From Nitrosopumilaceae archaeon (GTDB lineage Archaea; Thermoproteota; Nitrososphaeria; Nitrososphaerales; Nitrosopumilaceae), in assembly GCA_965207375.1 (NCBI GenBank), contig OZ242274.1, positions 736,001 through 800,000 on the forward strand: a stretch of 64,000 bases of DNA, read 5' to 3'. Below, piece after piece: positions 24,248 through 55,397 of the stretch (position 1 is its first letter; each line of letters starts with the position of its first letter). Under the pieces are notes generated by a model. It saw only the letters and a list, made by a program, of their open reading frames with translations. It was not told where the DNA came from and made no database searches. A program made the translations under genes and the position numbers.

Positions 24248-25108
24248 ATGGCTGAAAATATGATTTTTAGAAAAAAGGGGATTAAGATAGATGCCAGAAA
24301 AGAATACGCAATTCCAACAGATAGTGAAAAGGGATTTCCACTATTAGAGTTAACTGAAGAATATTTTAGTTTTAATGATTTAGTAATTTCTACAGATATT
24401 AAAGAAAGATTAGAATATGTAATTGCAGAAAACCAAAATCTAAAAAGATTAAGAGCGTTTGGATTAAATCCGAAACAAAAAATTCTCTTTTGTGGTCTTC
24501 CGGGAACCGGAAAAACACTTGGAGCAAGAATTATGAGTAGTGTAATCGGATATCCCTTTGTTTATGTGTTATTTGACTCAATTTTATCCTCTTTTTTAGG
24601 ACAAACAGCAACTAACCTTAGAAAGATCTTTGATTTTATTGAACAGGGGAAATTCGTAGTATTATTTGATGAATTCGATATTGTTGGGAAAAAACGTGAT
24701 GACCCACAAGAACATGGTGAAGTAAAACGAATAGTAAATAATTTTATGCAGATGATAGACAGATATGATGGAAACAGCATACTGATTGCTGCCACAAACC
24801 ACCCGCAATTATTAGACACTGCAATATGGAGGCGCTTTGACGAAGTGATAGAATTCAAACATCCTACAAAGCAACAACGAATAGAATTATTTGAAAAATA
24901 CTTGGGAGTGTTAAAGAAGAAAGAAGATCTAGATATAGGATTATTAGCAAAATTAACAGTAAAATATTCGGCTGCCGATATTGCCACTATATGTGAAGAC
25001 GCACTACGACGTAATGTCATTTGTGGCAAATCTGCGATAAAAAATGAAGATGTCATTTGGGCTATAAAAGAACAGAGACGTAGAAAAGGCATTATGTTAA
25101 GAGTGTGA
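24248..25108 (+). CDS. AAA+ ATPase, IetA-like partner of the S8 protease
   Basis: Walker A GLPGTGKT, Walker B VLFDEFD, AATNHPQLLDTAIWRRFD; 4 bp from the S8 gene. Confidence 0.9.
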   Translation: MAENMIFRKKGIKIDARKEYAIPTDSEKGFPLLELTEEYFSFNDLVISTDIKERLEYVIAENQNLKRLRAFGLNPKQKILFCGLPGTGKTLGARIMSSVIGYPFVYVLFDSILSSFLGQTATNLRKIFDFIEQGKFVVLFDEFDIVGKKRDDPQEHGEVKRIVNNFMQMIDRYDGNSILIAATNHPQLLDTAIWRRFDEVIEFKHPTKQQRIELFEKYLGVLKKKEDLDIGLLAKLTVKYSAADIATICEDALRRNVICGKSAIKNEDVIWAIKEQRRRKGIMLRV

Positions 25109-26808
25109 ACCCTTGTCTGACACCCATGAGCATTTAGATCTTCCAACCAACGATAAATCATTCAAAAGAGAAATTCACGGTTTCGGCAGATATGACCCAC
25201 AAAAAAATATTAAAGATTTTGCTAAAAAACAAATTAAAAATTTAGATAATATAGGAAAAGAATTCACAAAGATCGATCAATTTCCAGATTATAATCAAGA
25301 ATTGGTGTTTAAAGTAAAGACATCACAAAAGGTAAACGAAAATGAGTTTAGAAAGAGATTGAATGGAGTAGATTGTGAAACCATAACCTCATCTGTAGGA
25401 AAAAATGCTGAATGGATAGTATCTACATCTGATTCTGAATTTGCTGCATTAAAAGATAAAATCAATGTACGTGTAAAAAATGATAAAGTAAATTTCATAG
25501 ATGGAATTTCAGATTTTAAAAAAATAACCTTTCAAGATAAACTCGGTGAAAGGCTCTTAGAAGAACCGTTAGGTTCTATAGAAAAGGCAAGGATTGTAAT
25601 TAGTTTAAGTAAAAAAGAATCTGATCATAATGATGAAAAATTAAAAAGTTCTGTAAGGCTGATCGAAAATTTGGCAAAAGAAAATGATTTGGGAATCTAT
25701 GACAAACTAATTACCAAAAATATCTGTCTTATTTTATTGGACTGCACATTGCATTTTGCAAAAATAATTTCAAGAATAGATATAGTTGAAAAAATAGATC
25801 GTCCGCCTACGTTTACTCTTGAGAAAATGGTAAATGAACCCATCGAGATTCCAGGTAACATGGTGCCTCCAAATCAAAATGATCATGGAATTTTAGTTAT
25901 GGATTCGGGGATAATCCTTCATCCATTACTAGAAAGTGCAGTTGATCAAAATGATGGAATTGTTGGATTACCTGATAGAAATAGAGAGGATGAACGAAGA
26001 CATGGGACCATGGTGGGTGGAATTGCACTATATGGGGACATCGAAGAAAGATTATCCAACAAAGATTTTAGTGCAGATGTGTGGATTTATTCGTCCAAGG
26101 TATTCTATGAATCAAATAACAAAATAATTCCAGATGAGAGATTAATTGAAGCAAAAATAAAGGATGGGTTGAGGGATATTAAAGAGAAATTTCCAAGATG
26201 CAGAGTGGTCAACATATCTTTTGGCAGTGATAATAAAATCATGCAGGAAGGAAAAAAGCAGTTTGAATTAGCAGTATTGATTGATGATTTGGCAAAAGAA
26301 TACGAAGATACGGTATTTGTAATATCTGCAGGAAACATCAAACTAGAACATCATAAACAATATCCCAATTACCTACTAGCAGATAATCCAGAATACAAAA
26401 TAGGTGATCCTGCCACGTCGATTCATGCAATTTCAGTAGGAGCTGTTCAAAAATTTGGAGATTGGACAAATCAACCGTCAAATCTGACAAAAACCGGCCC
26501 TGGGCTTAACGGAATGATCAAGCCTGATTTTGTAGAAAATGGTGGAGGGTTTAACGAAAACATTATCGTATTGAATCCGAATTATGGGCAGCGCTTGTTT
26601 ACATTGAATAGTGGTACAAGTTTTAGTGCCCCAAAAATAGCCAATTATTTTGCAAGGTTATTTAATAAATTTCCAAAATATGATAGAAATCTTGTCACGG
26701 CACTGTTGATCTCATCTGCTAAAATTCCAGAACAGAGACCGGCTTTATTTCCAAAAATTAAATCAAATACAACAGCTGATGAATGGTCAAAAATTACAAG
26801 TGTTTATG

Positions 26809-27890
26809 AGATGTGATTCGTAATTAGCAAATTTCCCTAAATTTCACGCCTAGCAATACCAAAAAGATCCAAATATCACCCGAATCTACCACAACTCATG
26901 ATGTCCTATGAAAAACTGGTAAAAAATACCAGAAGATTTCGTGCCATAACAGGCATGTCTACCAAAGAATTTGATTTGTTGGTATCTAAGGTGGAAAAAA
27001 AGTATCCAAGAGCAGAAAAAAAGAGACTCTCTAGAGAAAACAGAGTGCGCGCAATAGGTGCAGGCCGCAGATTCGCATTAAATGTACGAGACCAGGTGAT
27101 GCTACTTTTGTTTTACTATCGTACATACTGCACACAAGATGTAGCAGCAGTCATGTTTGAAATAGGACAAGCATCAGTATCGCGCTCTATTACCCATATA
27201 GAGCCCATCCTCAAACTATGCATTCCTATACCTTCCAAAATACATGACAAGATGCAAAGAATTTCCTCCATAGAGGAATTAGAAGAGATTCTTCCAGGTC
27301 TTAGATGTCTTGTTGATGCCTCAGAACAGAAAATACAAAGACCAGGACGCAAGGACATGGAAAAGTCTCACTATTCGGGCAAAGCAGGAGCGCACACCTC
27401 TAAGATACAATATACGACTAACACGCATGGACTAATCGTGCACAAGACACGTCATTCACCCGGAAAAGTACATGACGTTACAGTATACAAGAAAAAACCT
27501 CCAACATTTCCAGAGAAAATACCTGATGAAGCACAGGTCACCATATATGCAGACAGAGGATACCAAGGGGCACCTGAGGTTCCCGGAGGGACACTGTGCA
27601 CCCCAATCAAAAAGAAAAAGGGTGCAAAGCTCACAGAAGGGCAAAAAGAATACAACAAAATCCACTCAAAGATTCGTGTATATGTAGAACATGCAATACG
27701 CAGGGTCAAAACATGGCGTATTATGGGAAACGTATACAGGAATCCACTCATAAAATACGACCGGATCAATGATATTGTGTGCGGTTTGGTAAACCGCAGC
27801 ATATTGTGGCGGTTAGATCAGATGGCCTGACTGAAACAGGGCATCTGGATGGCAGTAGGCACGCATAAAAAATAATTACGGATCACCTCT
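26809..27890 (+). mobile_element. IS5-family (ISL2/DDE_Tnp_4-like) insertion sequence, copy 1, 1082 bp
   Basis: Ends AGATGTGATTCGTAATTA and TAATTACGGATCACCTCT; 3-bp TSD ATG at 26806-26808 and 27891-27893. Confidence 0.9.
26898..27830 (+). CDS. IS5-family transposase (HTH_Tnp_4 + DDE_Tnp_4-like)
   Basis: LVDASE, YSGK, HD, YADRGYQG, RVYVEHAI motifs. Confidence 0.9.
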   Translation: MMSYEKLVKNTRRFRAITGMSTKEFDLLVSKVEKKYPRAEKKRLSRENRVRAIGAGRRFALNVRDQVMLLLFYYRTYCTQDVAAVMFEIGQASVSRSITHIEPILKLCIPIPSKIHDKMQRISSIEELEEILPGLRCLVDASEQKIQRPGRKDMEKSHYSGKAGAHTSKIQYTTNTHGLIVHKTRHSPGKVHDVTVYKKKPPTFPEKIPDEAQVTIYADRGYQGAPEVPGGTLCTPIKKKKGAKLTEGQKEYNKIHSKIRVYVEHAIRRVKTWRIMGNVYRNPLIKYDRINDIVCGLVNRSILWRLDQMA

Positions 27891-38189: not shown

Positions 38190-38603
38190 TTCTGGGTACA
38201 AATTCTGAGTACAGGTGTATAATTTTACAGCTAAACGAAAGTTGGCCCAAATTCTTATCCCAACTCTGTTGCTCTGTTTACATTTCGTGGTAGATTTTGG
38301 TGGAATACTCTAGTTTTATGAATCATCTGTACCGAAAGTCTTCAAATTTGTTCTCTAGGTACTACAAAATAATGAATAATTGTTTCATGTAAATTATATA
38401 CTAAAATTGAGAAATAAACTAAATGGTAACACTTTGACTTTTTGAAATTGCATGCGTAAAAAATATCGAATCTATCATTTTTACATTTGATTCATGCATG
38501 GCACTTTGTAAAATTGATCAGTTACACTGTGATATCTTGATGGGATAATGAATAATTGATCCATTTAGATTATATACTTACTTTATAACCATAAACTAAT
38601 AAC

Positions 38604-41600
38604 ATGTACAACGAAATATATAAAAAATTAACTAGTCTAACACTAATGGCAATCATGGTTGCTGGTGGTATGACCTTTGCAGTACCAGGAATGGTACCAG
38701 AGGCATATGCTGCCAATGCAAACCTGTTTGTCTCCGCAGAAAACTCACTATTTGACAATTACATGTCCGGACCTCAAGTAATTGAGGTTGCAATTATCGA
38801 CTCTTCTATTTCTGACACTGATGAAGGCAAAGGAGAACCTGACGTTACTGTTAATGGCAACAACCTGAGAATGGTGCAAGCCACTGACGGTAACTGGTAT
38901 GGTTACTTTGCTGATTATGAGATGGCAACAGAAGCCGCAAAACCAGGTAATGGATTGTACTTTGGTACATCCGGTTCTGCTAGTGATATTGGTCTTACTG
39001 AATTTGAAGCTGATGGATTATTTTACAACAACAAGACTAACGATAATGTTAAACTTAACGTTGTAAGAGAATCAAAGAACGTAAACGACTTTAAGGGTGG
39101 TCAAATCGGCATTGCCGAAAATAATTGGCCATTTATTCAACTATACACTCTAAATCCAACAGGCAATGTTGTGATACAGTACAATAAGGGAGGCGGTGCA
39201 CAAACCACCACATTAACCTTTGACACTGTTGATGACTTTGCAGGTATAGAATTGGACAGAACTTCTTATCCACAAGGAGCACAAGTTCATGCAACTGTTA
39301 CTGATGTATGGTTAAACATTGACCCAACAGATGAGGATTCTTGGACGTTTGCCACAAATGATGGTACTGCTTTCTATCATATCTTCAATGACAATGGTGG
39401 AAACGGTACCAACAATGCTGACGTACCTGTAGATCCTACTGAACTGATGTGTTCTGACTGTGCCTTGCTACTAAATCCTAATGTTCAAGGTGCTGATAAA
39501 CACGTCATTACAATTCAGGGCAATGCAGATTCTATGGTTGCTAATGATGGTCCTACCGTTGCCACAGCAGATGCTTGGAGAGGTAGTGCCGTAATTGAAA
39601 ACTTAGATGAAGGTACTCAGCCAGTTACTATTACAGAACAAGGACCAAACAGTGGAATCTTTGGTACTTATGACGAAGCCGACAAATCTGTACTCAAAAT
39701 TATCGATGATGCAGCTAGAGGCACGTCAGCTACTTTAGATTACAATGATAGCCCAGTATCTGTCCTAGTAACTCACGCATTTGCTGAAATCGACATTCAA
39801 CCAACATCTGATACCTGGAACAGCGGTGAACTAATACCAGTTGTTCTTGTCGATGCTGATATTAACAAAAATACCAGAGCAGACGAGAACATTTCATTAA
39901 GTGATCCTAGCTACCAAATAATTCCAAGTCTTAGGACTGGAAACCCAATTACATTGGGTAGTGGCGATATTATGGTATCATATGATGGCAGTGCCATGCA
40001 AGGTACTGATGTAGATGCCTTTAGCGACAGAGCAATTCTTGACGATGCTATGGGTGGTGACACAGTAAGTTCCGTACTAATTGACCTTGGTATTACTGGA
40101 GGAGACTTGAAAGGGTCTTTGATTAACAGCAATGCCGACAATACATATGGATACAACCTGTTCAACTATAACATCGACTCATTGACTGACGAAAACGTAA
40201 ACATATCCCTAGTTCATGGTGACGATCTTGCAGCTCCTGATGGCACAATCAAAATTGTTTGTGACGCATCAAACAGCGGCCTAGAGTTGTTACCTCATGA
40301 AAATTGTAAACAAGACATAAGACCAAGTGAACCAACTGCTCTTTCTGCAAGTCCAAGATCAGCTACTAGCGTAGCACTATCATGGACTGCATCAGAAAAC
40401 GCAGGAAGTTCATCAATCACAGATTACAAGGTAGAATATAGAATCGCAAATACCAACAACTGGATGACATTTGATGATGGCGTATCAACTAGTACCATGG
40501 CAACCGTGACTGGACTTACTGACGGCACAGAATATGCCTTTAGAGTAAGTGCAGTAAACAGCGTAGGTACAGGATATTCATCCGATGAGGACAAGGCAAC
40601 TGCAACTAACGTACAAAACAAACCAGATGCACCATCAGACTTGATGGTAACATCACAAGGTGATACTCAAATCATGCTATCATGGGCTGCACCATCAGAC
40701 GGTGGTTCACCTATTACTAGCTACACGATTCAACAAAGTAACGATTTAGGTTCTACCTTTAAGAACGCTAATACTACGTCTCCAGTAACTGGAATTACCG
40801 CAACTGTAACTGGACTTGATCCAGAAACAACATACATCTTCCAAGTAAGTGCAGTAAACAGCATAGGACCATCAGATTATTCTGATAGAGTCAGTGCAAA
40901 AACTACGCCTGCAAGTAACGGCGGTCAACAACCAAATCCTAACACACCAAACGTAGCTCCAGTAATCACAGCAATTACACCTAAAGCAGCAACAGTAGGT
41001 CAAGCATTGACATTCACTGTTGTAGCAACTGACGCTAATCCAGCAGACACTACTTTCACATACTCATTCAGTCAACCACAAGGACAGACATTAACATCTA
41101 CTCCTGATTGGACACCTACTACTGGTGTCTTTACATGGACTCCTGATGCAGCCGATATAGGTGACAAAATCTTTACCTTTATTGCAATGGACGATGGCGC
41201 TGCAAGATCAGCACCAGTATCTGTTACAATAACAGTAAGTGCAGCAAGCAACGGTGGTTCTAACAACGATCCAGTAGTAACACCAGGACAAGCTCCATCA
41301 GGTATAGCAGGTACAGCACTAGAACATCAAATCCTTGCAACTGATGATGATGCAGGTGACAGTCTTACTTACACTCTAATCAATGGTCCAGGAACACTAA
41401 CAATAAGTAGAACTGGTCTAATCGAGTGGGATGCACCAAGTGCAGGCTCACACGAAGTATCGTTTAGAGTAAGTGACGGCACATCTACTGTAAGAGGAAC
41501 TATCACAATAACGATAACTGCACCTACACCAACTTCAATAGTAATTCCATTACTATACAACTCTGGCAGTGCTTACGAATCACAACACTTTGGAGCAGCA

Positions 41601-44600
41601 TTTGATGAAGCAGTTTCAGATTATGACACCGATTCTCCCAAGACATTTAGCTCACAAAAGCTAAACTTGGGAACAACTCCTATACAGGCTGTACTAGATA
41701 CAGGCGCTAAAGGAGCAGTCGGTACTTATACTTCTGAACAGTTGAGGATTCTTAACGACACCGATAAAATCGGTACAGGCGTTGGCGACATCGTCTTGTT
41801 AAGTTACTCTTCAGCAGCAACATCATTTGCAGAACCAGGTGACGGTATCTTTAGATTGACTACAGATACATCTCGTCAGGTGGAGCATATAGTAACAGAA
41901 CTGATTCCATCTAACTTTGACAATATCATATCCATACACCTTGATGATGCATGGAGTAATGATTATGTTGATGCATTAGAGACTACATACGGTAACAATC
42001 ATAGAACTATCGCATACGATACTGCATACGACACTACACCAGCTAACATGACAGCACAGTTTGCAAGCGTACTAAGCGACACTACTACCGGATTATCAGG
42101 TCTTGATGCACAAACTGCAATCGTGATCCTTGAATTTGATCATGATAGACTTGATGCACTGGTAACAGAACTTGCTAGGACGAACGGTTATGCCAACATT
42201 GAGACCACAAAGTTCATCATTCCTGATGTTCCAAGTGGTGCTTTTGGTTCTACTTTACACGCTGATGCTCTTACATTGCTAAAATCCACAGACATGAAGA
42301 CGATAAAGTTTGCACTAAGTGACAATGAACAAGGTCAAACAGCATTAAAGGCAGCTCTGCAAGCTCAGAGTCCTAACAATGAAGTAGACCTTGACAGTTT
42401 CGGTAACATCTTTGACAGACATGCATATGCCGCATATGACGCAGGTCAAATCCTAACACGGGCAATAGATGCTCTTGGAACAGAATATACATCTGCTCAA
42501 CTAGATGCAGCTATACCAACTGCAGCAGCAGCTTATAGCTCTGATGCTTTGATATACAATACAGTGCTAAACGCCAATGGCGATTTGCAATGTATGATAT
42601 ATGACATATTTGAAATTGATGACACCCAAACAGGATTTGCACTTTCAGAGCCAACGCAAGCAACTACTGACGCTACTAACTGTGCTATAACCTACCCACC
42701 AACTATCAATGCAATCTCACCAGATGCACAGATAGTATACGTAGGTGATGAAAAACGCATTACACTAACCTCAAACGCTGACGGTGCTACATACAGTCAC
42801 GACTATGACAATCCAGCAATTTTGTTTAATGAAAGAACTGGAGTCTTTTCATGGGACGTAACTACTAGTGACTTGGATGATAAACCAATAAACATCGAAA
42901 CTATAGAGTTTACAGTCACTAACGGTACAGGTTCATCTTCTACATCTGTAGAGTTTGTAATAGTACCAACACGTGGAGTTGATGACCAAGACAGACCTCT
43001 TCCAGAGCGTGTCTCCGTACTATACGATAATACCTCAGAACTTGAACAAAAATTCGCTGAGGTAGTTCGTGTGGCAGTCTTTGATTACAATGCAGATAGC
43101 AATCCAGACAAGGTAAGTGACGCAGATGTTGAATTTGATGGACAGTCAGTTCCTCCAAGTACTCCAATAACTGATACATTTGAAGGAGTTGCACAACTGA
43201 TGAACGGTACAACATTCGAATACACCGGTGACACTATCAAGCGTGAAGGTACAACTATTACCAAAGGCGCAATTTACAACTACGCCGGTCCAGACACCTT
43301 CACCTTCAACGGTACAACATTCAACCACGACAGTGCAACACATACATTTGGACCTCAATTCTACAACGCTACAGTAGGAACATACACTTCTGCACAACTA
43401 GAAACGTTCAACACTGAACAATGGGCAGATGACATGGTGTTCCTAAGTTATGCATCAACTGCATCAACTCTATCACTTGACGACCACATATTCAGACTCA
43501 CGGCCGATAACGCATATCAGGTCGAAAACGTCCTAAAACCAGAACTAGACAAATATGACGGCAAAATCATAACCATACATCGTAATGATACATGGAGTGC
43601 CGATTATGTCGATATTCTAAAGGGCGAATATTCTGATCTCGTCGAGATACAGTATAACGCATCATTGTATCACAGAATCAACAATGCTGACTATTACAAC
43701 GATACGATAGGTGAGGTATATGAGGCAGAATTTGGAACAGACGGAATACCTGCTGACTCTGCAATTGTTATCTTTGCATTTGACGAATCAAGAGAAATAG
43801 TTCAAGCACTTGCAAGAGCAGGTAGCAATGACGGTTGGCAATTTAAGGACGTCAATGATACAAGGATTATCATTCCTGACTTGTCAGGTGACTTTAATGA
43901 CTTGACCGATGACGCACAATCAGACCCGGTACAACTACTCAAAGACACAAATGCAACAACAATCAGATTTGACGTAAAGAATAGCACTCTGCTAGCTGGA
44001 CAATTCCATAATAACCCAGATAGTTCTGATGAAGCAAACTTTAGCAAGTATAAAGAAATAACTGACGTCGCATATCCGGGTAGCGTTAACCGCAACTTTA
44101 CAGACGTTGCAGATAACAGGCACATATTTTCTGCATACGATGCAGGATATATCATGGCCAAAGCACTTGACATAATCGGACCAGGTCCAGACCAGGTAGA
44201 GCAACTCAAGGAGTTAATACCATGGGTAGCAAACCAGTACAGCGACCATGCACTGATTCACAACACCAAGATAGGTGCAAACGGCGACCTTGAAGAGATG
44301 AAATATGTCTTTGTAGAGATTAACGATAACTCAACCACAGGTGATCTAGAATGGATGGTCACAGTAGCACATGATCCTGACGCAGGCACTACAGCATCTG
44401 TACAGATGTTTAACAGTCCGCAGCTAGTATCATGTATTGACTGTGCAATTAATTCATTTGGTGAAATCTTTGGACAAACAGTTCAGATACAGCAAACACA
44501 GTCAGTTGATGCAGATACAGTCACAGAGCTATTCAACATTCCAAACAACGCCAAAGTAGGACTCCTCATAGAATATGACCGTTCTGATACTGATGCAGTA

Positions 44601-47474
44601 AATGACCCAATTGTATTGGACTTTTTCTCATTTGGATTCACAAATGATGGAACAGCTGCCTCAGATAGAGTATCAAACCAAATAGTCAGACTTGAATTGG
44701 AAGAAACTGGCGATAACACTGACACCTTCATAGGTGGCCTTGAATATGTCATGCTAAACCAACTCAACATTCTGGACAAAGAAACCTATACCGGACTAAG
44801 TCCAATATCTGACGAGCCAACATTTATCGTAATGGAGGACTTGACAGACGAGGACTCTCCAAGAGTCAATTATCTTGATCTAGGAGCAGACGGTGTATCA
44901 ACACAGATTGCTGACCAACAAGAGGCACCATCACACTCTGGTGTGGTAGCACTTGATTCAGACAACTACAAGGTTGCTGATACAGTGATTATCACATTGA
45001 CTGATGCTGACCTCAACGTGGACAGCGACTTGATTGATATTTTCACTACAGTCGCACCTGGAAATGGCGACATGTCTGATACAGTAGGTAAGGATGTAAA
45101 GTTCAATGACGCATCAGTCAGTATTGGTGATGCTCCATTAGGACGATTACTTGATGTTACCATTGACGACAAGACATGGACTGTAAACAACTGTGATTTG
45201 AGCAACATTGACGACGGCCTGCATGATACAGGTTTCACACTAATTGAAACCAGTACTGCAAGTGGTGTCTTTACGGGCTCATTCCAGATACCATCTGAAT
45301 ATTGTCCAGAAGGTGAAACAGAACGAAAATCTGTTACCGGTAACGATTTAGAGGTAAACTATGTCGACTTTAGAGATGCATCTGGTGAAATCATCGAAGT
45401 TGGTGATTCAGCAGGTGTACGAGCCAGCACTGGTTCAATATCTCTTGACAGAACGGTTTATCCAGTTCCATTTGGTGAAAACACATTCAATTTGCATGCT
45501 TCAGCAGGCGATGACGAATATCTACCAGAAGGTACTGTATCACTTCACGTTAGGGTCTCAGATCCTGACTATGATATATCAGCCTCTGGTGAGGATGTAA
45601 TCGCAGAAGGAACAACAGGACCTGTAACGGTAACAGTATCTAGAGGATCTGATAGTAAAGTAGTAGCAACAGCAGGTGCAGCATCTGCAAATGCTAATCA
45701 AGTACTTGAGATAGACGGTGAGAATGTAACCGTACCTGAATATGGACCAATCACAGAAATTGCACCTGACGCTGGAATCTTTGAAGCAGACATTACAATC
45801 AGTTCTACTGACGGACCTTATACAAGGGAATGTCCAGATAGTAACGGTTGTGTCTTGCAAGGAGACATTATTACTGTACAGTATGAGGATCCAACAGATG
45901 CATCTGGTGACGCAAACACAATTACCGATTCAGCTACATTTGATTTGAGAAACGCCGTATTGCAATCTGATAAATCAGTCTACATCATTGGAAGCGACAT
46001 GATTTTGACTCTAATAGAGCCAGACTTTGACCTTGACAGTGATGGAGCAGAAACATACTCACTTGATCTAATCGAGTGGGATTCAGATGCAGCAACTACG
46101 AGTATGGGCCCACTTGGTGGAGATAATGCAGCAGCATTTGATCCAGAACCAAACGCATTTAGAGAAACAGGCGACAGCACTGGAATCTTCCAGGTTGTAG
46201 TCGAAATTCCTGAAGCACTTAGTGGCGACAAACTCGAAAGAGGCGAAGAAATCGAACTAGAGTATACCGATTGGGGCCCATCCGGTTCTAACTATGTTGG
46301 TGAAGAAGACGAAGACATTAATCTTACAGTCTTCACATCAAACTTTGGTAGTACGGTGGAGCTAGACCAAAAGGTCTACACTTGGACTGATAAGGTCTAC
46401 ATTACTATTGTAGCACCTGACCACAACTTCGATTCTGACTTGATAGATGAAATAGGTAACAGTGATGACGATCCAATAAGGGTTGCAACTAGAAGTGCAG
46501 ATCTTGACAACTACAAGTTGGTAGAGACAGGCACCGATACTGGAATCTTTACTGGTGAGGTAATCCTTACAGGATTTGCACACGATGCTAATGGTGACGG
46601 AGAAACTGACGACTCAAACCCACGTACCGGTGACGGTACTGGCAACATTAAGGGCTTGGGCCCAACCAACGGATTCCTAGAAACTGAGGATGATGACGGA
46701 CTATCAGTATCCTTTGAATTTTCAGAGGATGAAACTGTGATAGGTTCATCATTAATCAGATGGAATATCGGTGAGGTTCAATGGCTTGAAGCAAGCTATG
46801 CAGCTAGCGGTACAGGTTTGGTAAGAGTAGTAGACCCCGACATGAATTTGAACCCAGAATCAGTTGACAACTTTGAGATTGATATTTGGTCAGATACACA
46901 TGCCGGAGGTATTGACTTGACTGTAACTGAGACAAACCAGGCTACTGGAATCTTTGAGGGCACAGTATTCTTTACTGTGACTGACGAGTCTTCCGGACAC
47001 AGACTGCGAGTCTCAGAAGGTGACACTGTAACTGCAGAATATGCAGACCGTACACTACCTGACCCACACGATACAACAGATAAGATTGATATTTCTGCCA
47101 CAACCCAGATTGGCTCACTCATACCTCCACTCGAGAGAGCACCAGCTACCAACTTGAGAGTAGTTGATGCATTTAGCAACACGCTAGATACTATTTCAGT
47201 GGACTCACAGGTACAGATTACAGCCGACTTGGCAAACGGTCAGGATAAAGATCAGCCATTTGCATACATCGTACAGATTCAGGATAGTAGCAGTGTAACT
47301 GTAGCCCTTGCATGGGTTTCAGGAACATTGACACCTTCACAGTCGTTTAGTCCAGCATTATCATGGACCCCCTCAGAAGCAGGAACATACACTGCAACTG
47401 CATTTGTTTGGGAATCTGTAGATAATCCAACTGCACTATCACCACCAAACGAACTCACAATAACTGTCAACTAG
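38604..47474 (+). CDS. Thaumarchaeal S-layer protein (SlaA-like) with a large multi-domain insertion
   Basis: Signal MYNEIYKKLTSLTLMAIMVAGGMTFAVPG..AYA; NANLFVSAENS.F.N; repeated ETG..TGIF.G Ig-like units; C-terminal WESVDNPTALSP. Confidence 0.9.
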   Translation: MYNEIYKKLTSLTLMAIMVAGGMTFAVPGMVPEAYAANANLFVSAENSLFDNYMSGPQVIEVAIIDSSISDTDEGKGEPDVTVNGNNLRMVQATDGNWYGYFADYEMATEAAKPGNGLYFGTSGSASDIGLTEFEADGLFYNNKTNDNVKLNVVRESKNVNDFKGGQIGIAENNWPFIQLYTLNPTGNVVIQYNKGGGAQTTTLTFDTVDDFAGIELDRTSYPQGAQVHATVTDVWLNIDPTDEDSWTFATNDGTAFYHIFNDNGGNGTNNADVPVDPTELMCSDCALLLNPNVQGADKHVITIQGNADSMVANDGPTVATADAWRGSAVIENLDEGTQPVTITEQGPNSGIFGTYDEADKSVLKIIDDAARGTSATLDYNDSPVSVLVTHAFAEIDIQPTSDTWNSGELIPVVLVDADINKNTRADENISLSDPSYQIIPSLRTGNPITLGSGDIMVSYDGSAMQGTDVDAFSDRAILDDAMGGDTVSSVLIDLGITGGDLKGSLINSNADNTYGYNLFNYNIDSLTDENVNISLVHGDDLAAPDGTIKIVCDASNSGLELLPHENCKQDIRPSEPTALSASPRSATSVALSWTASENAGSSSITDYKVEYRIANTNNWMTFDDGVSTSTMATVTGLTDGTEYAFRVSAVNSVGTGYSSDEDKATATNVQNKPDAPSDLMVTSQGDTQIMLSWAAPSDGGSPITSYTIQQSNDLGSTFKNANTTSPVTGITATVTGLDPETTYIFQVSAVNSIGPSDYSDRVSAKTTPASNGGQQPNPNTPNVAPVITAITPKAATVGQALTFTVVATDANPADTTFTYSFSQPQGQTLTSTPDWTPTTGVFTWTPDAADIGDKIFTFIAMDDGAARSAPVSVTITVSAASNGGSNNDPVVTPGQAPSGIAGTALEHQILATDDDAGDSLTYTLINGPGTLTISRTGLIEWDAPSAGSHEVSFRVSDGTSTVRGTITITITAPTPTSIVIPLLYNSGSAYESQHFGAAFDEAVSDYDTDSPKTFSSQKLNLGTTPIQAVLDTGAKGAVGTYTSEQLRILNDTDKIGTGVGDIVLLSYSSAATSFAEPGDGIFRLTTDTSRQVEHIVTELIPSNFDNIISIHLDDAWSNDYVDALETTYGNNHRTIAYDTAYDTTPANMTAQFASVLSDTTTGLSGLDAQTAIVILEFDHDRLDALVTELARTNGYANIETTKFIIPDVPSGAFGSTLHADALTLLKSTDMKTIKFALSDNEQGQTALKAALQAQSPNNEVDLDSFGNIFDRHAYAAYDAGQILTRAIDALGTEYTSAQLDAAIPTAAAAYSSDALIYNTVLNANGDLQCMIYDIFEIDDTQTGFALSEPTQATTDATNCAITYPPTINAISPDAQIVYVGDEKRITLTSNADGATYSHDYDNPAILFNERTGVFSWDVTTSDLDDKPINIETIEFTVTNGTGSSSTSVEFVIVPTRGVDDQDRPLPERVSVLYDNTSELEQKFAEVVRVAVFDYNADSNPDKVSDADVEFDGQSVPPSTPITDTFEGVAQLMNGTTFEYTGDTIKREGTTITKGAIYNYAGPDTFTFNGTTFNHDSATHTFGPQFYNATVGTYTSAQLETFNTEQWADDMVFLSYASTASTLSLDDHIFRLTADNAYQVENVLKPELDKYDGKIITIHRNDTWSADYVDILKGEYSDLVEIQYNASLYHRINNADYYNDTIGEVYEAEFGTDGIPADSAIVIFAFDESREIVQALARAGSNDGWQFKDVNDTRIIIPDLSGDFNDLTDDAQSDPVQLLKDTNATTIRFDVKNSTLLAGQFHNNPDSSDEANFSKYKEITDVAYPGSVNRNFTDVADNRHIFSAYDAGYIMAKALDIIGPGPDQVEQLKELIPWVANQYSDHALIHNTKIGANGDLEEMKYVFVEINDNSTTGDLEWMVTVAHDPDAGTTASVQMFNSPQLVSCIDCAINSFGEIFGQTVQIQQTQSVDADTVTELFNIPNNAKVGLLIEYDRSDTDAVNDPIVLDFFSFGFTNDGTAASDRVSNQIVRLELEETGDNTDTFIGGLEYVMLNQLNILDKETYTGLSPISDEPTFIVMEDLTDEDSPRVNYLDLGADGVSTQIADQQEAPSHSGVVALDSDNYKVADTVIITLTDADLNVDSDLIDIFTTVAPGNGDMSDTVGKDVKFNDASVSIGDAPLGRLLDVTIDDKTWTVNNCDLSNIDDGLHDTGFTLIETSTASGVFTGSFQIPSEYCPEGETERKSVTGNDLEVNYVDFRDASGEIIEVGDSAGVRASTGSISLDRTVYPVPFGENTFNLHASAGDDEYLPEGTVSLHVRVSDPDYDISASGEDVIAEGTTGPVTVTVSRGSDSKVVATAGAASANANQVLEIDGENVTVPEYGPITEIAPDAGIFEADITISSTDGPYTRECPDSNGCVLQGDIITVQYEDPTDASGDANTITDSATFDLRNAVLQSDKSVYIIGSDMILTLIEPDFDLDSDGAETYSLDLIEWDSDAATTSMGPLGGDNAAAFDPEPNAFRETGDSTGIFQVVVEIPEALSGDKLERGEEIELEYTDWGPSGSNYVGEEDEDINLTVFTSNFGSTVELDQKVYTWTDKVYITIVAPDHNFDSDLIDEIGNSDDDPIRVATRSADLDNYKLVETGTDTGIFTGEVILTGFAHDANGDGETDDSNPRTGDGTGNIKGLGPTNGFLETEDDDGLSVSFEFSEDETVIGSSLIRWNIGEVQWLEASYAASGTGLVRVVDPDMNLNPESVDNFEIDIWSDTHAGGIDLTVTETNQATGIFEGTVFFTVTDESSGHRLRVSEGDTVTAEYADRTLPDPHDTTDKIDISATTQIGSLIPPLERAPATNLRVVDAFSNTLDTISVDSQVQITADLANGQDKDQPFAYIVQIQDSSSVTVALAWVSGTLTPSQSFSPALSWTPSEAGTYTATAFVWESVDNPTALSPPNELTITVN

Positions 47475-48128: not shown

Positions 48129-49210
48129 AGAGGTGATCCGTAATTATTTGTCATGCGTGTCTGCTGCCATCCAGATGCCCTGCCTCAATCAGGCCATCTG
48201 ATCTAACCGCCACAATATGCTGCGGTTTACCAAACCGCACACAATATCGTTGATCCGGTCGTATTTTATGAGTGGATTCCTGTATACATTTCCCATAATA
48301 CGCCATGTTTTGACCCTGCGTATTGCATGTTCTACATATACACGAATCTTTGAGTGGATTTTGTTGTATTCTTTTTGCTCTTCTGTGAGCTTTGCACCCT
48401 TTTTCTTTTTGATTGGAGTGCACAGTATCCCTCCAGGAACCTCAGGTGCCCCTTGGTATCCTCTGTCTGCATATATGGTGACCTGTGCCTCATCAGGTAT
48501 TTTCTCTGGAAATGTTGGAGGTTTTTTCTTGTATACTGTAACGTCATGTATTTTTCCTGGCGAATGACGTGTCTTGTGCACGATTAGTCCATGCGTGTTA
48601 GTCGTATATTGTATCTTAGAGGTGTGCGCTCCTGCTTTGCCCGAATAGTGAGACTTTTCCATGTCCTTGCGTCCTGGTCTTTGTATTTTCTGTTCTGAGG
48701 CATCAACAAGACATCTAAGACCTGGAAGAATCTCTTCTAATTCCTCTATGGAGGAAATTCTTTGCATCTTGTCATGTATTTTGGAAGGTATAGGAATGCA
48801 TAGTTTGAGGATGGGCTCTATATGGGTAATAGAGCGCGATACTGATGCTTGTCCTATTTCAAACATGACTGCTGCTACATCTTGTGTGCAGTATGTACGA
48901 TAGTAAAACAAAAGTAGCATCACCTGGTCTCGTACATTTAATGCGAATCTGCGGCCTGCACCTATTGCGCGCACTCTGTTTTCTCTAGAGAGTCTCTTTT
49001 TTTCTGCTCTTGGATACTTTTTTTCCACCTTAGATACTAACAAATCAAATTCTTTGGCAGACATGCCTGTTATGGCACGAAATCTTCTGGTATTTTTTAC
49101 CAGTTTTTCATAGGACATCATGAGTTGTGGTAGATTCGGGTGATATTTGGATCTTTTTGGTATTGCTAGGCGTGAAATTTAGGGAAATTTGCTAATTACG
49201 AATCACCTCT
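48129..49210 (-). mobile_element. IS5-family insertion sequence, copy 2, 1082 bp
   Basis: Ends AGAGGTGATCCGTAATTA and TAATTACGAATCACCTCT; TSD ATG at 48126-48128 and 49211-49213. Confidence 0.9.
48189..49121 (-). CDS. IS5-family transposase, copy 2
   Basis: 310 aa; four substitutions seen versus 26898..27830. Confidence 0.9.
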   Translation of the reverse strand: MMSYEKLVKNTRRFRAITGMSAKEFDLLVSKVEKKYPRAEKKRLSRENRVRAIGAGRRFALNVRDQVMLLLFYYRTYCTQDVAAVMFEIGQASVSRSITHIEPILKLCIPIPSKIHDKMQRISSIEELEEILPGLRCLVDASEQKIQRPGRKDMEKSHYSGKAGAHTSKIQYTTNTHGLIVHKTRHSPGKIHDVTVYKKKPPTFPEKIPDEAQVTIYADRGYQGAPEVPGGILCTPIKKKKGAKLTEEQKEYNKIHSKIRVYVEHAIRRVKTWRIMGNVYRNPLIKYDRINDIVCGLVNRSILWRLDQMA

Positions 49211-54263: not shown

Positions 54264-55397
54264 GTGATATACAAAGCCCTAGTTGCATTTTTTATGATAT
54301 CAATACTAGTTGTACCGCCTTTAGCGCATGCAGATGTGCTGACCTTAAAAACAGACAAGCAGGTTTATGATAGAACCGATAAAATACGATTTTTGGGCAC
54401 AAGTGATGGTGGCGTACAACAAGTCACGTTAATTATTAGGGATTCCTCAGGCGACAAGGTTGAGATGTATACTGCTTATTCTGATGCAGATAGTGATTTT
54501 GAAATAAAGATGCCAAAGTCAATTAGGCATGTTTTTGACGATCCTGGAGTGTACGAAATAAGTGCGTTTACAAGCAAACAAGCAGTTGCTAGTGCAATCA
54601 GTATCAACTTACAATTTGACAAAAGTCAGGTCAAGGTGGTAAAAGTTTATGATTTAGAGCTAGAACCGATAAAAAACAAGGTAATTGACGAGGGCAAAAA
54701 ATACTCGTTTACGGCAAGAATTTCAGATAATACCATTACCGACGAAAAGTACAGGCTAGGTGTAAATACACCAGAGGGAGCAAAAATTGATTCAAAAACA
54801 GGCAAATTTACATGGACGCCCACCGAAGCACAAGGTCCAGGATCATACCTTATAGAAATTATAGTTACTGCAGGAATCTCACAAGTAAAAGAGACAATCA
54901 CCATAACCGTAAATGAAACACAAGATCCAATTATAACAAAGACACCACCAAAAACTGTACAAAATACACTAGCCTCATTTGTTGACCCAAACCAGGATCC
55001 ACAACACTATGTAGACAGATACAACAATGAAAAAGCCTACAAGCAATGGTTTGATGCAAACTTTGCACAATACTCTACAATTTATCAGGCAGTCGGACTA
55101 CCAGAGCCCTTCAAACTAGCCTCATTTGTTGACCCAAACCAGGATCCACAGCACTATGTAGACAGATACAACAATGAAAAAGCCTACAAGCAATGGTTTG
55201 ATGCAAACTTTGCACAATACTCTACAATTTATCAGGCAGTCGGACTACCAGAGCCTGATATTGGCATATGTGGAGACGGCACGAATCTTATAGACGGAGT
55301 ATGTACTGTAGTCAAGACCTCCTTTGAAAAACCGACACCGCCACAGCCAACTGTACAAGAAGAGCCACAAACATGCTTTTTGCTTTGGTGCTGGTAA
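54264..55397 (+). CDS. Secreted protein with Ig-like domains, two tandem 49-aa repeats and a CFLLWCW tail
   Basis: Signal peptide ending AHA; GAKIDSKTGKFTWTP Ig-like motif; duplicated LASFVDPNQDPQHYVDRYNNE...AVGLPEP. Confidence 0.75.
   Translation: MIYKALVAFFMISILVVPPLAHADVLTLKTDKQVYDRTDKIRFLGTSDGGVQQVTLIIRDSSGDKVEMYTAYSDADSDFEIKMPKSIRHVFDDPGVYEISAFTSKQAVASAISINLQFDKSQVKVVKVYDLELEPIKNKVIDEGKKYSFTARISDNTITDEKYRLGVNTPEGAKIDSKTGKFTWTPTEAQGPGSYLIEIIVTAGISQVKETITITVNETQDPIITKTPPKTVQNTLASFVDPNQDPQHYVDRYNNEKAYKQWFDANFAQYSTIYQAVGLPEPFKLASFVDPNQDPQHYVDRYNNEKAYKQWFDANFAQYSTIYQAVGLPEPDIGICGDGTNLIDGVCTVVKTSFEKPTPPQPTVQEEPQTCFLLWCW
54968..55255 (+). repeat. Intragenic tandem duplication: 141-bp unit x2, period 147
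   Basis: 54968-55108 versus 55115-55255; one synonymous mismatch seen. Confidence 0.9.

Follow-up and report, generated by a model that had tools for sequence, protein, structure and literature searches.

The window analysed here, by which we mean the whole stretch of 64,000 nt, comes from a Nitrosopumilaceae archaeon (GCA_965207375.1, contig OZ242274.1:736,001-800,000; C1:736001-800000 in genome G000, as we call this assembly of 4.30 Mb in 4 contigs). At window positions 38604-47474 it harbours a gene for a surface-layer (S-layer) protein, S1, whose single open reading frame (ORF) encodes 2,956 amino acids (aa) plus stop, runs uninterrupted over 8,868 nt and has no internal stop. S1 lies on the + strand, as do all its parts described below. 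Its two ends resemble those of the S-layer protein of Nitrosopumilus maritimus; between them, in frame, stand FN3, immunoglobulin (Ig)-like and type I periplasmic-binding-protein (PBP) domains. A first-pass annotation, made from the sequence alone, had proposed just such an S-layer protein, with about 1,400 aa of cargo inserted in frame, and both the single ORF and the homology on either side of the cargo bear it out. Its SlaA label, by contrast, has to be given up: the family is that of the N. maritimus protein, not of Sulfolobales SlaA, and no SlaA family is found among the Pfam or NCBIfam matches of the whole protein.

An N. maritimus-type scaffold interrupted by a large insert

Searched with phmmer against PDB sequences, S1 matched 8c8k, the 1,734-aa 'Cell surface protein' of N. 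maritimus, at E = 0 and 1,820 bits. On the N-terminal side, S1 residues 1-139 and 111-495 align with 8c8k residues 1-147 and 156-555, followed by a weak block (469-538 with 571-643; 5.2 bits); on the C-terminal side, residues 1970-2413 and 2414-2955 align with 685-1169 and 1197-1733 (405 and 932 bits). Judged from these alignments, the scaffold of S1 is broken at aa ~546-1969 by an in-frame insert of ~1,400 aa, for which the first-pass annotation had drawn the bounds at aa 573-1965.

The N-terminal scaffold (aa 1-545; 38604-40238) starts with a signal peptide and is homologous to residues 1-~643 of the N. maritimus S-layer protein (NmSLP), covering domains 1-2 and the beginning of the D3/D4 region, and the C-terminal scaffold (aa 1970-2956; 44511-47471) is homologous to NmSLP 685-1733, the C-terminal Ig array. 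NmSLP numbering here refers to the 1,734-aa protein of family genome G131, whose N-terminal 60 residues and 685-720 stretch match the 8c8k sequence, numbering included. S1 shares 47.5% identity with this protein over NmSLP 1-643 and 63% over the C-terminal part (~1,040 residues). Like NmSLP (Nmar_1547; PDB 8c8k; von Kugelgen et al. 2024, PMC11153153), S1 is acidic in composition, with little Lys or Arg: Asp makes up 10-12% and Lys 1.6-2.6% of its scaffold (10.7% and 1.7% in NmSLP), and the cargo, too, is acidic throughout. By homology, S1 is a full-length member of the Nitrosopumilus-type (NmSLP family) S-layer proteins, for which lattice assembly and a major role in the envelope are predicted.

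Domain composition of the cargo

The modules of S1 follow one another in the order N - FN3 - FN3 - Ig - Ig - PBP-A - Ig-like - PBP-B - C. Two FN3 domains (PF00041; aa 574-670 and 671-775; 40323-40928) were called by Pfam in 2 stretches at E 8.7e-30 and 103.2 bits against a cut-off of 25, and the same region matched FN3 chains of titin and RPTP in a phmmer search of PDB sequences. Next come two Pfam-supported Ig domains of the Big_9/He_PIG type, Ig1 and Ig2 (aa 776-880 and 881-975; 40929-41528), scoring 30.9 and 40.6 bits for Big_9 (cut-off 23.6) and 25.4 and 28.7 bits for He_PIG (cut-off 24); weak Cadherin_5 matches are also present in the cargo. PBP-A (aa 976-1365; 41529-42698) and PBP-B (aa 1467-1925; 43002-44378), both assigned by fold and homology, are separated by a beta-rich linker, the third Ig-like domain (aa 1366-1466; 42699-43001). 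PBP-B further includes an extra segment of ~70 aa (aa ~1515-1585; 43146-43358) that has no counterpart in PBP-A, matches no Pfam family and is modelled with a predicted local distance difference test score (pLDDT) below 50; the alignment of the two PBP domains begins only past it. PBP-B also carries 13 of the 24 N-x-S/T sequons of S1.

This picture agrees well with the first-pass annotation, which had listed two FN3 domains at ~40320-40910, two Ig-like domains at ~40950-41525 and PBP1-like domains at ~41540-42690 and ~43005-44370: its domain list stands and all its coordinates lie within about 10-20 nt of our boundaries. The additional Ig-like domain that it placed between the PBPs fared less well. 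Pairwise BLASTP relates it to Ig1 and Ig2 (E 2e-4 and 3e-3), but Pfam gives no match and its pLDDT is low (35-66); it is probably a divergent He_PIG-like Ig domain, for which the support is weak overall.

Two Venus-flytrap domains with a conserved cleft

PBP-A and PBP-B are 34% identical (E 6e-41). On its own, PBP-A had a single, unusable phmmer match among PDB sequences (E 0.81), and two PBP domains of the paralogs introduced below score 25.0 and 23.3 bits for Peripla_BP_6, under the cut-off of 31.7. NCBIfam holds no family for the whole of S1, PBP-A or PBP-B, so that no call of subfamily or ligand is possible. Among 1.84 billion representative proteins, phmmer retrieved 157 matches to PBP-A at E <= 1e-3, and nine of the ten that were scanned carry both Peripla_BP_6 and ANF_receptor above the cut-offs, the tenth (P0022) having Ig-type domains only. 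Undoubted Pfam members of the PBP families are related to PBP-A at E 3.5e-19 (P0028) and 1.9e-24 (P0026), and the 72-sequence profile A1 found LivJ/LivK structures among PDB sequences, with 4n0q at 2e-32 and LivJ (1z15) at 4e-28. AlphaFold2 modelled PBP-A with a mean pLDDT of 93.8 and the core blocks of PBP-B mostly with 82-97, three blocks lying at 54-76. With both models, Foldseek retrieved chains of metabotropic glutamate receptors, atrial natriuretic peptide (ANP) receptors and LivJ-type proteins from the PDB at a probability of 1.00; the template-modelling (TM) scores of PBP-A were 0.60-0.65, and its best matches include the peptide-hormone receptors 1jdp and 1yk0. Models and homology together confirm for both domains the type I PBP, or Venus-flytrap, fold with its two alpha/beta lobes, and the first-pass calls of PBP1-like domains hold. 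A complex prediction of PBP-A with PBP-B returned a score of 0.00 ('no answer'), which counts neither for nor against pairing, and a pattern search of the genome contigs with PBP-A gave 108 pattern matches, of which 0 were confirmed.

For the ligand cleft, we turned to LivJ, whose S79, T102, Y150, Y202 and E226 we take to be the contacts with the alpha-amino-acid ligand. In the alignment with 1z15, these correspond to PBP-A positions 69, 96, 142, 203 and 233. We compared 32 S-layer-embedded domains, namely the first and second PBP of four long paralogs and 12 relatives. S69, W142 and D233 are present in 32/32, and so is an aromatic residue (F or Y) at position 203; G65, S92, S95, R109, D140, D304, G351 and D352 are likewise invariant. 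The WYGxD motif of the LivJ family reads (F/I)IPD in the S-layer domains. The two PBPs differ systematically. First ('A') domains have Ala96 in 15/16 cases and Leu138 in 16/16, and second ('B') domains combine Thr96 with Arg138 in 15/16, which is the general family consensus; the equivalent of LivJ T102 is thus Thr in B-type and Ala in A-type domains. These residues suggest that the A and B subtypes may represent two maintained specificities. Across the 12 relatives, PBP-A is 71-79% identical, compared with 60-77% and 71-85% for the scaffold ends and 33-73% for the FN3/Ig modules. At the level of sequence identity, PBP-A is hence conserved as highly as the ends predicted to form the lattice, and more than the FN3/Ig modules.

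Where could these PBPs have come from? Genome G000 encodes a Liv-type ABC operon with a solute-binding protein (SBP) and two PF02653 permeases (C1:1998172-2001312). We considered its SBP as the source of the cargo and rejected it, as it is not among the 9 matches to PBP-A in G000 (E <= 1e-8). Outside the S-layer clade, the PBPs most closely related to those of the cargo belong to tandem-PBP surface giants (for example P0026, P0019 and P0020), which lack an NmSLP-type scaffold; P0026, for instance, has 1,722 aa and 4 ANF_receptor/Peripla_BP_6 stretches. Giant non-S-layer proteins with tandem type I PBPs are also encoded in G000 itself (C1:1728862-1735468 and 1757066-1758106) and in G041, G052, G061, G071 and G089. 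With frames of 750-4,055 aa, such proteins are common in some Nitrosopumilaceae genera, and among known proteins they stand nearest to the cargo PBPs.

The cargo replaces a short stretch, probably next to an outermost domain

Two connectors join the cargo to the scaffold. The entry connector (aa 546-573; 40239-40322; defined by flank alignment) contains C553 and C568, which would form a disulfide; a Cys...Cys loop of 14-20 residues is found here in 5/5 paralogs of G000, and neither in NmSLP nor in the related fusion of genome G014 (see below). The exit connector (aa 1926-1969; 44379-44510) has the motif NSPQxVSCIDCAxNSFGEIFGQTVQ, again in 5/5 paralogs and missing from NmSLP. According to the flank alignment, connectors and cargo together take the place of NmSLP ~674-693. 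Since the two ends of the cargo return to connectors that are few scaffold residues apart, the cargo must form a closed loop.

Aligning S1 to the N. maritimus protein, as the first-pass annotation had suggested, thus yielded the site and a probable face of the lattice. In the structural study, NmSLP domain 4 is described as nested in domain 3 by short connectors and projecting extracellularly, and NmSLP glycans as sitting mainly on the outermost domains 1, 2 and 4 (PMC11153153). Given these statements, and with 10 of the 26 NmSLP sequons falling within residues 526-670, NmSLP 520-690 would correspond to domain 4. If so, the cargo would leave from the return connector of a glycan-rich outermost domain, on the outer face. 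In NmSLP, too, one domain (D4) is thus held within another and faces outward (PMC11153153), as the cargo would here. The difference is one of content: NmSLP, with 1,734 aa, consists of Ig-like domains only, and S1 adds ~1,400 aa of FN3, Ig and PBP modules at NmSLP ~674-693.

Paralogs and relatives share the nested arrangement

S1 is not unique: a genome search shows it to be one of five S-layer paralogs in G000, all on C1, four of which have two PBPs and stalk modules in different orders. In addition to S1, these are S2 (2,885 aa; N - PBP - FN3 x3 - Ig - PBP - C), S3 (2,939 aa; N - PBP - FN3 x2 - Ig x3 - PBP - C) and S5 (2,763 aa; N - PBP - Ig x3 - PBP - C). N. maritimus, for comparison, has two paralogs at 91% identity. 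The fifth paralog of G000, S4short (C1:1401257-1406245; 1,663 aa), reads N - first 114 residues of PBP - exit connector - C and lacks the last ~90 scaffold residues. We rejected the idea that it is the ancestral cargo-free form: its 114-aa stump, PBP-A-like and 73-74% identical (BLASTP), is joined directly to the exit connector, which marks S4short as an in-frame deletion derivative and leaves G000 with no cargo-free copy. Of the possible lattice subunits, S4short may be the leanest.

With the PBP region as query, a word-indexed search of 5.8 billion proteins returned 17 matches at E <= 1e-3: 12 relatives derived from the ENA (2,227-3,066 aa), 3 paralogs of G000 and 2 unrelated tandem-PBP proteins. 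All 12 metagenomic relatives have the arrangement scaffold - two PBPs - scaffold. The FN3/Ig run lies between the two PBPs in 3/4 long paralogs and 11/12 relatives. In these PBP-first cargos, the first PBP directly follows the entry connector, unless 1-2 Ig-like modules or 50-130 unassigned aa come in between, and the second PBP immediately precedes the exit connector. The stalk-first order is confined to S1 and P0007 among the four long paralogs and 12 relatives, and its recurrence in P0007 provides independent support for the arrangement of S1. 'Clamshells on stalks', as the first-pass annotation had put it, is therefore right about the clamshell folds but too simple about the rest, the cargo being a nested closed loop with PBPs mostly at both of its ends. 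In a tree of the C-terminal scaffold, which leaves out P0007 (truncated) and the G014 protein (contig ends), S3 groups with P0012 (100/99), S5 with P0015 (95/94) and S2 with P0013 (96/94). As the paralogs interleave with the relatives, they must be older than the split from those relatives.

Distribution in the family and other cargo

We searched 151 family genomes, including G000 and the unpublished G092, G077 and G093, the last three of which enter the tallies only. A match to the S-layer N-terminus at E <= 1e-20 was found in 135/151; among the 150 matches listed (there are 255 further ones), frames outside G000 do not exceed 2,153 aa. PBP-A-like matches at E <= 1e-8 occur in 21/151 genomes, that is, in 20 of the 150 other than G000, many of them in frames of 2,000-4,000 aa; within an S-layer frame, they occur only in G000 and G014. 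The fusion is thus seen in 2/5 genomes searched within the genus. The G014 version (L018; G014:C2 4800-9591) is minimal, N - one PBP - C, with neither FN3/Ig modules nor Cys-bearing connectors, and its frame reaches the contig end.

That cargo might vary among homologues had been anticipated in the first-pass annotation, and the survey found this to be so, both in the shuffled modules described above and in other genera. We checked four of the longer S-layer frames from the latter. One (L022; G017:C39 1962-2783) has one Ice_binding domain (PF11999; E 5.8e-32) at NmSLP site 518-565; another (L019; G111:C13 358-1065 and 1942-2739) has two (E 5e-35 and 3e-37), at NmSLP sites ~220 and 518-571. A third (L021; G099:C1 4826-6259) is extended at its C-terminus by 478 aa that include a copper domain of the plastocyanin/azurin type (PF00127; E 5.4e-6, 27.2 bits, cut-off 21.2). 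As NmSLP has its C-terminus on the side of the cell membrane, this extension would put a copper protein into the pseudoperiplasm. The fourth (L020; G022:C20 3706-4545) carries a 280-aa insertion at NmSLP 1132/1133 that belongs to no Pfam family. With Ice_binding, cupredoxin, 280-aa and PBP cargos side by side, the scaffold accepts whole domains at several sites, and these sequences point to a wider, apparently undescribed habit of cargo insertion in Nitrosopumilaceae S-layer proteins.

Genomic context and assembly

A TATA-box-like motif, TTATATA, lies at 38570-38576 on the + strand, 28-34 nt upstream of the ATG. It conforms to the archaeal TATA consensus, recurs in a shared context at S2 and S4short and is missing from S3 and S5, and we regard it as a candidate promoter element of S1. 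Downstream, 655 nt past the S1 stop, begins one of two copies of an insertion sequence (IS) with a DDE_Tnp_4 transposase: the left arm lies at 26809-27890 (+ strand), the inverted right arm at 48129-49210 (- strand). The copies are 1,082 nt each and 98% identical and bracket a segment of 20,238 nt that looks like a composite transposon. With S1, this segment holds DprA-like, TPR, UDP-glucose dehydrogenase, HD and toxin-antitoxin genes; the neighbours of S1 encode a UDP-glucose dehydrogenase, an HD protein, a DprA-like protein, a HEPN/MNT pair and a MazF-like protein. In G000, tblastn finds 21 matches to the transposase, all on C1. Just outside the left IS copy, at 24248-26816, an AAA ATPase gene is followed by one for a 567-aa subtilase (Peptidase_S8), and ~7 kb downstream of S1 lies a gene (54264-55397) for a protein of 377 aa that has Ig-like domains of the He_PIG and RibLong types. 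On a larger scale, C1 (2.16 Mb, GC content 0.382) has 47 tRNA genes and carries every IS copy as well as the five S-layer paralogs, and C2-C4 (2.14 Mb together, GC content 0.367-0.369) have only 2, 5 and 10 tRNA genes; the stated contamination is 0.06%.

Could the junctions between the parts of S1 be products of assembly? Contigs from public runs bridge three of them with 0 differences: the N-scaffold/FN3 junction (X1 39889-41035, X3 39889-40965), the Ig2/PBP-A junction (X3 41006-41564) and the PBP-A/Ig3/PBP-B junctions (42654-43551 in both X1 and X3). The exit junction is merely tiled by two overlapping pieces (X3 43606-44483, X1 44454-44705), and among the contig pieces listed, none spans the whole of S1 or the whole exit connector. 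As both runs may stem from the source sample, these contigs do not count as independent support. The search for sequencing runs listed no RNA run that holds S1. A stronger argument against a chimera than the run contigs is the presence of the same architecture at four loci and in 12 separate assemblies.

Discussion

How does S1 relate to known systems? S-layer proteins with fused functional domains are already known; the nesting of PBP and FN3 modules in an NmSLP-type scaffold is apparently undescribed. In line with the first-pass annotation, which knew of no such fusion, our literature searches found no thaumarchaeal S-layer protein described as having a nested domain of the PBP, FN3 or ice-binding kind. 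The available text of the NmSLP study does not mention cargo of this kind, and its Extended Data Fig. 5a, on the S-layer architectures of Nitrososphaerota, may bear on novelty (PMC11153153). The closest published analogues, described by Chadwick et al. (2022, PMC9012536), are the giant multihaem cytochromes with S-layer domains of the anaerobic methanotrophic archaea (ANME) ANME-2/-3, which likewise join an archaeal S-layer module to functional cargo, together with SBPs predicted to be docked to S-layer proteins via dockerin-cohesin pairs. The same source has the ANME fusions use an S-layer family of the DUF1608 type, carry haem cargo for electron transfer, and be thought minor and membrane-anchored (PMC9012536); in S1, by contrast, a homologue of the main lattice protein holds the cargo covalently, within its own chain.

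With LivJ/LivK-type (HAAT) SBPs and the Venus-flytraps of ANF receptors and class C GPCRs (PF13458, PF01094), the PBPs of S1 share the fold, profile homology and a Ser/aromatic/acidic cleft. Yet LivJ/LivK proteins are free in the periplasm or lipid-anchored, whereas the S1 PBPs are internal domains of a lattice protein, score below the Pfam gathering threshold and have no adjoining transporter genes. Sugar-binding proteins are also organised at the envelope near the S-layer in the 'bindosome' of Sulfolobus. Those are separate proteins with pilin-like signal peptides, which lie under the S-layer and serve ABC transporters, and they are not known to be fused to a lattice protein.

What is the physiological role of this cargo? 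Starting from the observed architecture, fold, conservation and sequence-level insertion site, we favour, with a probability of about one half, the reading that cargo-bearing subunits present a pair of working clamshells for small ligands at the coat's outer face, where they capture or sense small nitrogenous solutes. The protein would join the hexagonal lattice, and each subunit would put two clamshells on the outer face, with the FN3/Ig modules serving as spacers. The coat would then form a dense surface for the capture or sensing of small nitrogen-containing, probably amino-acid-like solutes, and organic substrates would join the cations whose enrichment has been proposed as a role of the S-layer in N. 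maritimus. Also in keeping with this reading are the Liv-type ABC operon of G000, the acidic cargo, the TATA-like motif ahead of S1 and the recurrence of the fusion, with intact frames, in four paralogs, 12 metagenomic relatives and, in minimal form, G014. With five paralogs and shuffled spacers, the cell might alter the geometry or the surface that is exposed and still retain its binding modules.

Several points weigh against this capture reading. S1 sits in an IS-bracketed accessory segment, with no ABC-transporter genes among its annotated neighbours. The only PF02653 permeases of G000 lie 1.2 Mb from S1 and come with their own SBP; this SBP not being among the PBP-A matches, no hand-over partner is evident, and a domain held outside the lattice is unable by itself to dock on a permease in the membrane. 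PBP-A stays under the Pfam threshold (21.4 bits for ANF_receptor, where 25.4 are required), PBP-B has no Pfam match, and NCBIfam is silent on both domains. Modules of the FN3 and Ig/cadherin-like kinds are just as characteristic of adhesins. S4short, with its 1,663 aa and PBP stump only, might be the main lattice-building paralog. Finally, the placement at domain 4 derives from sequon clustering and the text of a paper rather than from coordinates.

A less probable alternative is a coat for adhesion or recognition, attaching the cell to a host, particles or other cells, in which the PBPs would bind a macromolecular or surface-bound ligand much as ANP receptors bind peptides. The FN3, Big_9, He_PIG and weak Cadherin_5 matches would then be adhesin parts, the peptide-hormone receptors among the best Foldseek matches would fit in, and another He_PIG protein is encoded close by, at 54264-55397. 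Against this, the positions contacting the alpha-amino-acid ligand in LivJ are kept in 32/32 domains, which a small-ligand cleft fits better. The Liv-type transporter of G000 may speak for adhesion or recognition as well, such transporters being typical of sponge-symbiotic Thaumarchaeota and absent from the free-living ones analysed, according to Haber et al. (2021, PMC7848895).

We consider it rather unlikely that the cargo is chiefly a variable outer shield, whose shuffled, glycosylated modules vary or mask the surface against viruses or grazers, with the PBP fold as a sturdy scaffold for glycans. The five paralogs with their differing module orders, their interleaving with relatives on the tree, the 13 sequons in PBP-B and the position of S1 in a 20-kb segment between inverted IS copies, along with toxin-antitoxin genes, could all be read in this way, and a glycan shell has been suggested to protect cells from phages (PMC11153153). 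Under diversifying selection, however, one would expect the opposite of what we find: the PBPs, the most exposed candidates, are the best conserved parts of the cargo, and their cleft is invariant. Nor did we see any means of switching, for instance by an invertible promoter or by recombination of cassettes, though no search was aimed at one.

It is very improbable that S1 is silent or an artefact, be it a paralog that sits unexpressed on a mobile segment or a chimera in which the assembly joined an S-layer gene to unrelated genes for surface proteins: despite the IS bracketing and an exit junction that is tiled by two contig pieces and not spanned by any one of those listed, the frame is open over 8,868 nt, the nested arrangement and the connectors recur at four other loci of G000, the arrangement recurs in 12 separately assembled ENA contigs (stalk-first in P0007), zero-mismatch contigs from two runs cover three internal junctions, PBP residues are conserved and the TATA-like motif is common to two paralogs. 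Capture, adhesion and shielding, for their part, are not mutually exclusive.

If the capture reading is taken one step further, the S-layer proteins of Nitrosopumilaceae may be a modular display system, in which whole folded domains placed in defined loops give the coat new functions. In the present lineage, each lattice subunit would bear two working Venus-flytrap receptors of two specificities, and their two-dimensional array would concentrate organic nitrogen above ammonium-sieving pores. We offer both as a tentative proposal that is more likely wrong than right. In the sequences compared, candidate display sites are seen at NmSLP ~220, 518-571, 674-693 and ~1132 and at the C-terminus. As the chain enters and leaves each clamshell via different lobes, ligand-induced closure might couple to the lattice and so give rise to a ligand-responsive S-layer. 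The outward ice-binding-like cargo and the cell-facing C-terminal cupredoxin of other genera would be sister solutions.

The S-layer of N. maritimus is reportedly a charged sieve that enriches ammonium, and is said to be treated as representative of nearly all ammonia-oxidizing archaea. The present data indicate that the NmSLP scaffold can bear large folded cargo: two conserved, predicted ligand-binding clamshells per subunit here, and ice-binding-like or copper domains elsewhere. If the cargo proteins are part of the lattice, the coat would be more than a sieve, namely a functional organ for the capture or recognition of substrates. The clamshells would then be a pointer to the organic nitrogen sources that are used, and the sites at which the family inserts its cargo would offer natural permissive positions for display engineering on a structurally solved archaeal S-layer.

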